Shown here piece after piece: positions 8,496 to 38,150 of a stretch of 64,000 nt of DNA; the first letter of the stretch is position 1; each line of letters starts with the position of its first letter. The stretch comes from Podarcis liolepis (lineage: Eukaryota). Both the position numbers and the translations under genes were made by a program. A model generated the notes under the pieces. That model searched no databases. It was not told the origin of the DNA and saw nothing but the letters and a program-made list of their open reading frames with translations. The stretch lies in the NCBI GenBank assembly GCA_965112155.1, contig OZ218100.1. One strand, given 5' to 3'.

Positions 8496-9030
8496 CACTA
8501 TGTGGGATCAGCAAAGCTTCTGTATGACTTTCTGGAATTGGATGTGATGATTCAGCATCTTAAAACACGTTATTCAAGATAAAGTAAAACTATCTAATTT
8601 TATGGAGAAGACAACGATTCCATGTTGGGATCTGGAAGCCTGATTTTGACAGGATCCTTGCACAAGAGCTATTAGCGTATGGCTGCAAACCCAAAAGAAA
8701 ATAAGGAGGCAAAAGTTATTGGATATTCTGCACTCCAGCTTGGTCCACTAGAGCAAATTGGCTGTCCATTCATAAACAAGAAAGCATCCAAATAATGTTG
8801 AGTCAGTGCTCAGGGGCTCAGATGACATCAGTAACAGAGTTGGCTTCTCTTTTAATTTTGATAAGTGTTGGATGCACAGATACTGTCAATGTCCACAACA
8901 GGTATGGCAATATGGTCACCTCTCTCTTTAGCAGATTCAAAGTGGTGGCATGGTTTAACAACAACAAAAAAATAATTTTGCTTCCAAGACAAAGGAAAAT
9001 GGTATCTTGGTTTAGGTGTGGAGGGAAATA

Positions 9031-9871
9031 CAGTGGTACCCCGCAAGACGAATGCCTCGCAAGACGGAAAACCCGCAAGACGAAAGGGTTTTCTGTTTTG
9101 GAGGCGCTTCGCAAGACGAATTTCCCTATGGGCTTGCTTCGCAAGACGAAAGCCCATAGGGAAATCTTCGGGGACCTGTTTTAAATTGCTGGCGGTTGGG
9201 AGCAAAGACTTTCGCCCACAGCCGGCCTTCAGAAGAGGTCCTGGAACTCTTCTGAAGGCCGGCGGGGGGCAAAAGTCTTTGCTCCCCCCCGCCTGCCTTC
9301 CCAGGACAGCGGAGACTTCACCGCTGCCCCGGGCGATCTTAAAATGCTGGCGGGCGGGAGCGAAGCGTTCGCTGCCGACCCCCAGCATTTTAAAATCTCC
9401 CCCGGACAGCAGAGAAGTCTCTGCTGTCCTGGGGAGATTTTAGAATGCTGGGGGTCGGGAGCGAAGCGTTCGCTGCCGACCCCCAGCATTTTAAAATCTC
9501 CCCGGGACAGTCTCTGCTGTCCCGGGGAGATTTTAAAATGCTGGCGGGCGGGAGCGAAGTGGTGCCTCGCAAGACGAAATTAATTCGTTCCGCGAGTTTT
9601 TTCGTCTAGCGAATTTTTCGTCTTGCAAAGCACGGTGTCGGAAAAGTTTTGGAAAAGCTTCAAAAATCACCAAAAACCTCAAAAAAGGCTACCACACTGT
9701 GTTCTATGAGTTGCTCCTCGAAGTCAAGTCGCAACTGTATTAACGGTGTTAAGAAAAAGGAAACAAACTTGCAAGACGTTTTCGTCTTGCGAAGCAGCTC
9801 AAAAACCGCAAAACCCTTTCGTCTAGTGAGTTTTTCATCTTGCGAGGCATTCGTCTTGCGGGGCACCACTG
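9031..9871. mobile_element. Young non-autonomous Tigger/pogo-like DNA transposon
   Basis: Long TIRs CAGTGGTACCCCGCAAGACGAATGCCTCGCAAGA... / ...TCTTGCGAGGCATTCGTCTTGCGGGGCACCACTG, TA TSD, many subterminal CGCAAGACG repeats, CpG retained, no transposase ORF. Confidence 0.9.
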
Positions 9872-10795
9872 TATACTCTCTGTGGTCACCTGCTGGTGCT
9901 AAAGTCCAGGATACTGATGTGGTCTGTTAGCTACAGGGCATTTTGCTCAACTCAAATGCTGGTTTCAGTTGTCCTCTTATGCCCAAGTACATGTGCATAG
10001 GATTGTAATAGTAATGGGGTTCAGGTAATTAATAACCCTCCATTAAAATAATACATTCAGGGAGTTGCATGTGGCCACATTGCCAAAGATTAAGATTAAT
10101 AAATATGAAGGGAGGGAGGTTAGAATGATACCTGACCTCCACCTGCATGAGTGGAAAATTATATTAGACAGGCCTCCCATTCTGGTGATAGCTGGTGTAG
10201 GGCCTCAAAACAGGACGTATTGGGGCAAGGTGGGTCTCAGCTGACAAAGGATCTTACAGATCCTATATTGGCCCATTACCAGTTGGCCTGACTAGTAGGA
10301 GCTGGCAAGGTTTCAAATGTGGTGGCAGCTCTACTACTCCAATCATCCCCCACTCAGAGTTAGGATTTCCCTGCATGCAGGCAGTTCTATACACAATTAC
10401 ATGGGAGTAAGTCCACTAAGTAGATGTGCACTTTAAGATATATCACAATCACTTTCTCTCTTTTATTATACTTGCAATGCAATACTATGCAAGTGAGTTC
10501 TGGGAGGCTTACTCCCAAGTAAGTGGGTGTAGGATTGCAGTATTACGGAGCCTAGTTGAAAATGGAACTCTATTAGTATTACTAATTGGTTGGAGGTACT
10601 TACAAGGTTTTTCAAATATATAAAATAAGCCCTATTACTGAACAGTAGAGAAGAAAAGAATGACTGACACCAAGGAGTATTGCATTGCTTTTTGTTGCCT
10701 TGAGGTTTCTTTGAAACCAGAAAGTGCCTGTGGATTCTGAATGAGCGTTAATGATTCATCGTTATTGTGTGTGGGTACCAGGCTGTTTCCCTTAC

Positions 10796-29781: not shown

Positions 29782-30611
29782 TTGCGTGGACGCGCGCAGC
29801 CCTTGGATCTGGAGCGGCTCCAACAGCATAGGCTTGGCTTTGCCTTCCCTCAGGTGGGATACCTGGAGGTCTCCACCTACCTCAGTCAGTTGTCCAATCC
29901 CACCTGGGGGAAGCGTTGCCAAGGAGACCAGGCCAGGTAGGGGAGGGATTACCTGCCCACACAATAGAGGGAGGATCTTACCTAGGAATCCTCACTTGGC
30001 TCCAGAGCTTCTCCCACCCTACCCACCCTCAGTTAAGGTCTTATTTTGCAGGTTAACTTTTCTTCACAGGTTTTGCAGGTTAACTTTTCTTCACAGGTAT
30101 GCGGGCGCTGCTACGTTAAGGTCGCTGTTAAAGGGCCGGAAAGGAATTTCCCTGCATTGGCAGGTTTCGCCTTTCCCGTAGCAAAACGTCACAACTTTGG
30201 CGGTATCAGGCCTTGGGCGGAATCCTTTTGTCCATCTTCCTCTTGCGGCGGCGATACCAGGGTTCCCCGTTAAAGGGGTTTTCTGAAGGGAGGCTTTGGC
30301 CGTACACCGAAAGGTCGTCATTACTCCCTCCTGCGGCGGCGGCGTTACGGGGGCGGCCATCTCTGCTTGAACATATGTTCTCCAGAGCCGGCCCATTCCC
30401 CCCCCACACACACACTGGATAACCCTGATGCTCCCTAGGTCCCTGGCTGGGGACTGGGGAGGGAGAACGCCCAGTGCCTGAGCCAAGGTCTACCCACATT
30501 TGAAATTTAATAAAGTTGTGGCCAATTTAATCCCATAGCACGTTGTCTTGAGTCGTTATTCACATGACGGGGGGACCGTGTAGGATCTGGGGACTCCGCC
30601 TGTCCACGCAA
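29782..30611 (+). mobile_element. Young CpG-rich retroelement terminal repeat (DIRS/Ngaro-like or solo LTR)
   Basis: 10-bp terminal inverted repeat TTGCGTGGAC/GTCCACGCAA, AATAAAGTTGTGGCC at 30509, sharp GC/CpG contrast with flanks, no TSD found. Confidence 0.6.
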
Positions 30612-35608: not shown

Positions 35609-36203
35609 TGTGATGGCCTGGGACTCGGAACCTGAGGAATCCCAGCCTGCACAGGATTCCCCACCTCCAGAACCAGCTGAGCCGGGGCTGGGGCATGAGC
35701 CTGAAGGGTCCTCACCTGTGCTGGATCCTTGGGTACAGGTTGAGTCTTCTCTGGCTCCTGAGGTGATGGAGGACCCATTGCCTGCAGGTGCTCCACTCTC
35801 AGCCCCATCAGAGGAAGCTGAGGTTGCCTCTGGGTCCAGTAACCCTCCAGCCTCTCCTGAGCTGCAGAGGCTCAGGGCAGAGAGGCGGAGGGAACTAAGT
35901 TCCCGCAGGAGGAGTGCTCGCCTCCAGTCCAGGAGAGCCGAGTCACCAGAGGATCAGGGCCGCCCTATGCCTTGGGGCAGATAAAAGCCGGCCAGCCCCA
36001 GTCCCAAGTTGTGGGAGCAACATTGTTGGTTGCTAGTTCCTGCCTGGACAATGTCCTGCTTACCTGCCTGAGCTCCTGACTCGCCCTGGCTCCCCGTTTG
36101 CATGCCTGTCCCTGACTTCATCTAACTCCCTGCCCTGCATCAAACTTCAGCTACTATGAACTGCCTCCATGTTGTACCTTTGACCATGGACCGGACTTGG
36201 ACT
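35609..36203 (+). mobile_element. Gypsy-like LTR, 3'-truncated
   Basis: Starts TGTGATGG; GC-rich U3; TATA-like ATAAAAG at 35981; pyrimidine-rich R-like region; ends abruptly against L1 without AATAAA or a CA end. Confidence 0.65.
35613..35984 (+). CDS. LTR U3-encoded 123-aa ORF: acidic Pro/Glu/Ser-rich N-terminus, basic C-terminus with RRRSARL
   Basis: ATG 4 nt inside the LTR start, uninterrupted to a TAA overlapping the TATA-like box; MAWDSEPEESQPAQ...ELQRLRAERRRELSSRRRSARLQSRRAE... Confidence 0.45.
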   Translation: MAWDSEPEESQPAQDSPPPEPAEPGLGHEPEGSSPVLDPWVQVESSLAPEVMEDPLPAGAPLSAPSEEAEVASGSSNPPASPELQRLRAERRRELSSRRRSARLQSRRAESPEDQGRPMPWGR

Positions 36204-38150
36204 GTATCTCACCCAAACCTTTCTGATTATATTACTTAGAAATTCTTTATGCACCACCACTTTGCTGTAAATTAGATAGGCATGCCAGCCATATCTGTTG
36301 TTCCATCCCTCTAAGTCTAAGATATCATTATTATCTAGTGTAATCCTGTCTCTGATCCAACTAAAACATGCAGCATCATAATATATTCTCAGGTCTGGGA
36401 GTCCAAAGCCATCCCGCTCTTTTATGTCTGTTAATAATATATGTTTTATCTGTGGCTTTTTACCTTGCCAAATAAATTTTGTTAGGTCCGATTTCCATTT
36501 TTTAAAACATTCTTCTTTACCTATTATGGGGATCATTTAAAAAAGGAACAGGAGTTTGGGTAAGATATTCATTTTAATAGCTGAAATTCTACCCCAAAGT
36601 GTTAAATTCAGCCTTGTCCAAATTTCTATTTCTCTTTTTATTTCTTCCCAATTTTTTTTCATAATTATCTTCGAACAAATTTATATGTTTCATTGTTATT
36701 TGAATTCCTAAATATTTAACTTTTTTTTTTTACAATTTGTAGTCCAAATTTTTCTACCAGTTCCTTTTCCTCCTGATCTCCCATGTTTTTAACCATTAGT
36801 TTCATTTTCTCCTTATTCAAAGCAAAACTTGAAACCTTTCCAAAGTTTTCCATTTTTTCTAGAGCCTTTGCGATGCTTTCTTTTGGGTTTTCAACCATTA
36901 GCACTAAATCATCTGCAAATGCCCTTATTTTATATGATTTCTCCTCTAGGGATATTCCTTTTATTTCTTCATCTAGTCTAATTTCTTGATTTAATATTTC
37001 CAGGACCAGGATGAATAATAATGGTGAAAGTGGGCACCCTTGTCTAGTGCCCTTCTGTATTTTTTAAAAATCAATCATATCATTATTTATTATTATGGTT
37101 ACTTCCTGTTGTTCATAGATTACTTTTAGGCCTCTTGTAATTTGATCTCCCATTTCCATCTGGTCTAATATTGTTTTTAGGAATTTCCATGAAACTTTAT
37201 CAAACGCCTTTTCTGCGTCCACAAATATAAAAGCTACCTTCTTATTCGGTTTCATGTCTAAGTACTCAATCATATCAATCACTATTCTTACATTATCACT
37301 CATTTTCCTCCCTGGCAAGAACCCTGCCTGCTCTTTGTTTATACAATCCTGCAAAACTGTCTGTAATCTTGTTGCCAATATTTATGCATAGATTTTGTAA
37401 TTATTATTAAGTAGTGATATTGGTCTATAATTATTTATAAACTCTTTATTCTGTCCTTGTTTTGGCATTACTACTATATGAGCCTGCTTCCAAGTATTGG
37501 GAGGCTTCCCATCTTCTAGTATTCTATTTATGAGTGTTTTCATTGGTGACAATAGTGATTCTTCTAATTTTTGGTAATGTGTTGCAGTAAGACCTTCTGG
37601 GCCTGGGGATTTTCCCAGTTTCATCTTAATTATCACTTGTTGTAGCTCCATCATGGTTATTGGGGAGTTTAGATCTTGAATCTTTTCTTTCCTGATTTTA
37701 GGGATTTTCCTTTCCACATAGATACTTTGTTATTTCTTCGTCTCTCTCAGTTCCAGCTTTGTATAACTTTTTATAGTATTTTATAAAGCACTTTTTAACT
37801 TCCCCAGGATTGTCTAAAGTTCTCCCTTTTTTCACTATTTTATCAGTTGATTTTTCCTTCTGTCTCTTTTTCAATTGCCAGGCCAACATCTTTCCTGGTT
37901 TATTTGTGAATTCGAATGACCTTTGTTTCATCCATTTTATATTATCTTCGATTTCACTTTTTAATATTGCTGATGCCTGAGTTTGTAATATTTTTAATTT
38001 TGGGCTTATTAATTCATTTTTTTGTTTTGCTAATATTTTTTTATTTATTCCTATAGCTTTCCTTATTTGTTCTAGTTTTTGCTCTCTTTTCTTTATTGCA
38101 CTTTATTGTATATGAAAGCTTTACTTGCATCCCATATTGTCTTTGTATCT
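36204..38150 (-). mobile_element. L1-clade LINE ORF2 fragment (RT domain), frameshifted
   Basis: Motifs IWDASKAF, KSPGPEG, NYRPISLLN, QAGFLPGR, FVDAEKAFDKVSW, KGTRQGCPLSP, AFADDLV, FIWQGKKP and GFGLPDLRIYY are spread across several frames. Confidence 0.95.

Follow-up and report, generated by a model that had tools for sequence, protein, structure and literature searches.

We analysed a 64,000-nucleotide stretch of DNA from Podarcis liolepis, referred to here as the window. It contains a long terminal repeat (LTR) of a chromovirus, and the U3 region of this LTR carries an open reading frame (ORF) for 123 amino acids (Table 1). The initial annotation had described an ORF that opens 4 nt into the LTR, takes up U3 and has its stop codon in the TATA-like box, and a Glu/Pro/Ser-rich N-terminal part free of Lys and Arg that is followed by basic segments; coordinates and residue counts agree with both descriptions. 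Residues 1-84 include 18 Asp or Glu, 18 Pro and 13 Ser, and the first Lys or Arg is residue 86. In the window sequence the ATG at the LTR start has a good Kozak context, with G at -3 and +4. Since the LTR is not preceded by a polypurine tract (PPT) and its end is lost at the minus-strand L1-like LINE fragment, the window copy is a solo LTR or the remnant of a 5′ LTR.

Table 1. Features of the LTR copy and its flank, in positions of the window.
Feature	Position	Strand	Comment
Solo (or 5′) LTR, Tf1/sushi-type chromovirus subfamily 'A'	35609..36202	+	starts with TGTGA at 35609; last ~33 nt absent; no polypurine tract upstream
U3 ORF, 123 aa	35613..35984	+	ATG at 35613, TAA at 35982-35984; homologue of the final 108-142 Pol/integrase codons, which full elements carry in the 3′ LTR
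Acidic Pro/Ser-rich part, aa 1-85, no Lys or Arg	35613..35867	+	predicted disordered
Basic segment ELQRLRAERRRE	35859..35894	+	only predicted helix of the tail (low confidence; model of a sister protein)
Segment SSRRRSARLQSRR	35898-35936	+	same coordinates as in the initial annotation
RRSARLQS, HMGN-like motif	35907..35930	+	RRSARL at 35907-35924; within the most conserved block; RRSARLKA in young sister elements
TATA-like box GATAAAA with the ORF stop codon inside	35980..35986	+	
Predicted transcription start / self-primer site	36011..36020	+	by homology to the LTR site of sister elements; 10-nt complement
Decayed L1-like LINE ORF2 fragment	36203..38102 (approximate)	-	adjoins the truncated LTR end; not the element's own

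The sequence RRSAR[LI] occurs once among the 127,996 six-frame residues of the window, and a Pfam search with the window ORF (P0001) matched no family at E 0.01. The length of the ORF by itself is only modestly above chance. When its DNA was shuffled with dinucleotides preserved, the given frame was open in 47 of 2000 sequences and any of the six frames in 332, which bears out the caution of the initial annotation that GC-rich DNA can stay open by chance; an open frame is weak evidence on its own. Across the window, 94 of the 144 ORFs of at least 75 aa were searched against Pfam and LINE reverse transcriptase alone was found, so that no host gene was identified there. Two other features were observed. 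At 9028-9874, inverted repeats with arms of 72-89 nt are nested and contain short direct repeats, as in a MITE- or foldback-like element. At 30091-30526, GC-rich ORFs without a Pfam match overlap on both strands; lying ~5 kb from the LTR, they may be the first exon of a host gene.

The genome of the lizard contains 2506 candidate copies found by DNA and 5515 found by protein, of which 40 and 150, respectively, were scored. The 5′ start of the window LTR is shared by 29 other fetched loci. These repeats are mostly ~645 bp long, run from TGTGA to GCACA with 5-bp target duplications, and are mostly solo LTRs. The assignment to a lizard Gypsy-like LTR family made in the initial annotation was right. 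The ORF is also typical of the family: at least 123 aa are open in 24 of the 30 top copies, and 19 of these encode 129 aa. Compared with copy L003, the window LTR has two in-frame deletions of 12 and 6 nt. The closest database proteins come from Podarcis muralis.

Several candidates for full elements or 3′ LTRs were rejected. The 6.8-kb LTR pair on C16 (L061, C16:29178400-29187900) is a segmental duplication instead, in which each unit of a 6.8-kb tandem duplication carries an A-type solo LTR; it also contains a CR1-like reverse transcriptase and an immunoglobulin-light-chain-V-like exon, the latter recognised by eye. The GGATGG-flanked A-type LTRs L129 and L130 are solo LTRs with chance flanks, and the G-rich flank of L256 is not pol. 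As to the distribution of the copies, many of the chromovirus matches listed, from several families, lie on C20 (40 Mb), which also has the few 3′ LTRs of older subfamilies and appears to resemble a non-recombining, W-like chromosome. On C1-C9, 74 of 94 old A-type LTR matches lie in the distal 20% of the chromosome ends, compared with 42 of 92 young PPT-flanked elements (Fisher p 1e-4 for C1-C6). This bias of the old LTRs may stem from the way solo LTRs form or are retained, or from the similarity ranking of the matches.

A search of the same genome for a G-rich tract before the LTR start gave 316 matches, and 30 loci, three tandem copies among them, were fetched. Of these 30 PPT-flanked 3′ LTRs, 26 have a single frame running from the chromodomain to the LTR ORF, and 23 are open over all 504 upstream codons fetched. 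In full-length sister elements the frame continues past the PPT for 108-116 codons of the 3′ LTR. Six elements were fetched whole and have paired LTRs ~5 kb apart. In L127, a single ORF of 1564 aa encodes gag, PR, RT, RH, IN, SH3_Tf2-1 and Chromo and ends 114 codons inside the 3′ LTR; many frames of 1558 and 1564 aa were present among 150 chromodomain matches, and the UniRef Podarcis Pol P0124 (1240 aa) has this tail as its end. The lengths of the tail (108, 114, 116, 119, 129 and 142 aa) differ between subfamilies by whole codons. The gag-pol layout varies between sister subfamilies as well: some, such as that of L127, have one ORF of 1558-1564 aa, and in others, such as those of L123 and L124, gag is in another frame than pol, which is 1270 aa long. 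At C2:104.47-104.49 Mb (L090-L092, L204-L206), three tandem element copies are spaced by 5005 bp and probably share LTRs.

The read-through was seen in young sister subfamilies, the U3 of which is ~70% identical to that of the window. An internal region shared with these sisters, at 78-88% identity, also links the window's subfamily to them. Both recovered 3′ LTRs of this older subfamily (L148 and L149) are out of frame with the chromodomain. We infer that the subfamily worked in the same way as its young sisters. The ORF is very probably the tail of Pol and not a separate gene. The initial annotation had proposed a separate accessory protein of the MMTV sag or HIV nef type. These genes are separate ORFs that overlap U3 and are expressed from their own RNAs. 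The lizard ORF shares the U3-overlapping coding sequence with them; an accessory ORF has a frame separate from pol and env, whereas the lizard frame is continuous with Pol behind the chromodomain in full elements, and the proposal was not supported.

Copies differ in the length of a G-run that immediately precedes the 3′ LTR, and the frame between chromodomain and LTR is kept in 39 of 52 PPT-flanked loci. Young copies keep it in 38 of 46 cases, all eight exceptions are nearest to an in-frame copy, and near-identical duplicates of young copies differ solely at the G-run. The frame is kept in just 11 of the 28 scorable older loci, where the off-frame copies L102, L104 and L121 have nearest neighbours that are off-frame too. 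The G-run variation would most likely come from slippage at the homopolymer or from errors in the assembly.

For the analysis of selection, natural copies with an intact ORF were codon-aligned and compared pairwise according to Nei-Gojobori, taking between-group minus within-group values with at most 20 copies per group. The first set comprised 104 of 130 LTR starts; for the second, 20 of 30 loci of the 142-aa subfamily E were added and five B114 copies removed. The net dN/dS of the tail was 0.39-0.51 between subfamilies A and B in the first set and 0.25-0.42 between subfamilies in the second (bootstrap upper limits 0.41-0.71). The 31-codon basic block that includes RRSARL reached 0.09-0.21 against subfamily E, the most distant one, at a dS of 0.8-1.0; between A and young B, its dN/dS was not significantly below 1, with an interval that includes 1. 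The acidic part had a net dN/dS of 0.27-0.52, and its length varies between subfamilies through in-frame indels. Amino-acid identity between groups is 0.74 in the basic block and 0.38 in the acidic part. Shifted sense frames gave ratios of 0.9-2.3 overall and of 1.0-2.0 in the second set, and all five other frames contain stops; a similarly low ratio is seen in the antisense frame whose third positions coincide with those of the ORF, but that frame has 1-4 stops per copy on average. These data show that the tail is under purifying selection, which is strongest on the basic block. The protein-level selection with frame-preserving indels on which the initial annotation had made its proposal depend is thus present between subfamilies (net dN/dS 0.25-0.51).

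The tail is far less constrained than the core of Pol (dN/dS 0.40-0.47 versus 0.01-0.07). Within the window's subfamily dN/dS is 0.92, and six of nine indels in the ORF break the frame. Selection acted on replicating elements, and solo LTR copies decay neutrally. The earlier suggestion that solo LTRs scatter the ORF through the genome was therefore right as to the scattering, and the scattered copies are the decaying ones. The exact sequence RRSARL is present in 55 of 58 B, 27 of 41 A and 11 of 20 E copies, counts that are inflated for A and B because these sets were filtered for a loosely motif-like end; decay forms are RRSAHL and RRSACL.

The family of the window LTR belongs to the Tf1/sushi group (V-clade) of chromoviruses within Ty3/Gypsy. 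It shares with this group the domain order gag-PR-RT-RH-IN (Pfam, sister elements L127 and L123), SH3_Tf2-1 and a type I chromodomain at the integrase C-terminus (PF00385, E 8e-15), TG...CA LTRs and 5-bp target duplications. It also shares the self-priming signature in place of a tRNA primer site, an arrangement that is a trait of the Tf1/sushi group (PMC6317226). It differs in that the lizard Pol extends 108-142 codons into U3. In six of eight elements tested, the sequence after the 5′ LTR has a 10-11-nt complement to an LTR site located 25-40 nt downstream of the AT-rich box; the complement is missing in two decayed A-type elements. The pair co-varies between families, and a complement of at least 10 nt was found for only 1 of 200 shuffled 20-mers in the control. 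Tf1 transcripts provide the primer with their 5′ end; applied to this signature, transcription is predicted to start near 36011, which is ~27 nt beyond the ORF stop. With the predicted start downstream of the stop, the ORF lies wholly in U3 and is carried by the genomic RNA in its 3′ part. Transcripts initiated at the LTR promoter are predicted to lack the ORF, so that the lone window copy would not be expressed by its own promoter. The initial annotation had suggested expression from the 3′ LTR, where the ORF likewise lies upstream of the predicted start.

The closest working analogy, likened by description, is the CR motif of plant CRM group A, where the polyprotein reaches into the 3′ LTR and a targeting motif is encoded there (PMC3059260, PMC3605345). 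The CR motif replaces the chromodomain, whereas the lizard element has a canonical chromodomain upstream of the PPT and the tail behind it. The CR motif goes along with a location at centromeres, whereas young lizard copies are spread along the chromosomes. The lizard element is not a CRM member. A Pol frame that extends into the 3′ LTR has thus been described before, in plant chromoviruses, and this type of architecture is not a novelty.

The motif itself resembles sequences that bind the H2A-H2B acidic patch of the nucleosome, namely RRSARLSA of HMGN, RRSARIAT of Dot5 and RRSSRLTS of Dsup (PMC13347269, PMC12480509). RRSARLQS of the window is identical to the HMGN core RRSARLSA at six of eight positions and RRSARLKA of the young sisters at seven of eight. 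Like HMGN, tardigrade Dsup and yeast Dot5, the lizard tail combines an arginine motif of the RRSARLxA type with acidic stretches and (predicted) disorder. The acidic region of HMGN lies C-terminal to the motif; that of the lizard segment lies N-terminal to it, and the segment belongs to a polyprotein. The lizard ORF is not an HMGN protein, as it has no HMG14/17 domain match and is in frame with Pol. In the AlphaFold model of a sister protein (mean pLDDT 56) the chromodomain alone is confident, and the tail is predicted with low confidence to be disordered with one short helix before the motif. The cage positions of the chromodomain are Tyr, Trp and Tyr, as read by eye from P0002 against PMC3350952, which reports H3K9me binding for the chromodomain of the chromovirus MAGGY.

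Long tails were also found in other squamates, in database proteins whose LTR boundaries are predicted from the shared junction pattern. Behind its chromodomain, the Anolis element P0006 has an acidic stretch, SP, a basic segment and RRSARIAA. Proteins from Rhineura, from P. lilfordi and from unnamed sources have acidic and basic tails without RRSARL. In the distant family C of the same genome, 7 of 19 loci examined have a Pol that enters the 3′ LTR for 100-110 codons, and this tail has a basic end, no ATG at the LTR start and no RRSARL. The conservation of RRSARL that the initial annotation had called for thus extends to sister subfamilies and to one Anolis element, and not to the other squamate lineages or to family C. 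A distant family (L180-L188, L191 and L192) has an extra acidic stretch of ~70 aa before the PPT; its LTR tail of 100-110 codons closes with a basic segment together with LLCW..F, a conserved motif. In another chromovirus family of the lizard genome Pol stops before or shortly after the LTR junction, and in fish relatives from the database it runs just ~15-20 codons beyond the junction.

In a tree of 21 SH3-chromodomain rows, the long-tail squamate elements grouped together (support 87/90), and RRSAR[LI] is present in two of the nine rows of this group. The support is modest, and the tree is compatible with ancestry as well as with convergence of RRSAR[LI]. A search of a 50%-identity library found RRSxR[LIVM] after the chromodomain in 1 of 137 new matches; most of these matches are gene models from fish and amphibians with wrong joins downstream of the chromodomain, and the number is therefore no measure of motif frequency. 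Searches of the open literature found neither a description of the tail nor a retrotransposon with an HMGN-like motif, and the passages of PMC3601003 on Sushi LTRs do not mention a coding overlap.

With a probability of roughly 0.6, we favour the reading that the ORF is the stranded C-terminal tail of a chromovirus Pol and that RRSARL likely anchors integrase on the nucleosome acidic patch. Pol would be read from the integrase chromodomain through the PPT into the 3′ LTR, and after proteolysis the tail would remain on integrase as a long acidic flexible linker, a basic helix and an arginine anchor. Together with the type I chromodomain, the anchor would provide a second chromatin contact during target capture, and it possibly doubles as a nuclear localisation signal (NLS). 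As LTRs are copied during reverse transcription, each 5′ LTR and each solo LTR would receive these codons too; there they would lie ahead of the predicted start as silent passengers. Judged by its likeness to known binders, the motif would likely contact the acidic patch, and chances are about even that such tethering is the tail's main job. A wider proposal, which we put forward tentatively, is that one lineage of squamate chromoviruses may have evolved a dual-reader integrase, with a methyl-lysine chromodomain and an LTR-encoded HMGN-type anchor on an acidic tether of ~90 residues, which would make it an integrase with a genuine mimic of HMGN; at its boldest, it would include a free nucleosome-binding tail protein that is released through G-run slippage and the strong ATG and encoded by thousands of solo LTRs.

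The basic block of the Pol tail might instead be mainly an NLS or a generic DNA- or RNA-binding patch, its likeness to HMGN being incidental. Such a role would fit the related squamate tails that hold an acidic part, SP and a basic part without RRSARL, and the short RRSxR strings in the integrase tails of several fungal-like elements; a C-terminal NLS is established for Ty1 integrase. Basic clusters suffice for an NLS, yet S-A-R-L is exact across subfamilies at a dS near 1, and RRSARI recurs in Anolis, like the proven acidic-patch binding motifs. We consider this explanation rather unlikely.

It is still less probable that the tail is also, or instead, a free protein translated from the ATG at LTR position 5 on a subgenomic or host read-through RNA, acting on chromatin in trans, with slippage at the G-run switching between the fused and the free form. 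The Kozak context of this ATG, the presence of Met at the LTR-start position in Anolis and Rhineura, and the low share of in-frame junctions among older loci (11 of 28) are consistent with such a protein. The ATG, however, is part of the terminal integrase attachment repeat and is absent from family C, the ORF lies upstream of the predicted start site, and the in-frame nearest neighbours of all eight off-frame young copies are as expected of independent slips. The neutral decay of the solo copies (dN/dS 0.92, frame broken by six of nine ORF indels) also argues against it. RNA data came from four 2026 runs of two studies, chosen by species label, with reads mostly 85-99% alike. Depth across the element is low and sense-biased in these runs, and at this depth neither a GT-AG joint nor a start pile-up was found, which weighs little either way. 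LTR reads come from both strands with heterogeneous upstream flanks, which would suit read-through RNAs and is as expected of solo LTRs within host transcripts. The public Podarcis gene models P0037, P0123, P0125 and P0126 fuse the 5′ LTR ORF to gag; because the RNA reads show no such joint, these fusions are probably prediction artefacts.

The weakest explanation, a chance open frame in GC-rich U3 with conservation due to promoter elements, might draw on the shuffles with some open frame and on the lower dS of the basic block for some pairs, but it is highly improbable and already largely refuted by the dN/dS comparisons, as divergence is concentrated on the synonymous sites of one frame only (dS up to 1.3), indels between subfamilies are in frame and the frame is continuous with Pol.

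Within the searches made, the long vertebrate version of the Pol tail, its measurable selection and its HMGN-like motif are new. Thousands of solo LTRs in the lizard look like small intact genes and enter gene models, which is a practical trap for annotation, and the LTR-borne Pol tail explains this gene-like look. If the motif binds the acidic patch, it would add a nucleosome-anchoring mode to target selection by retrotransposons.
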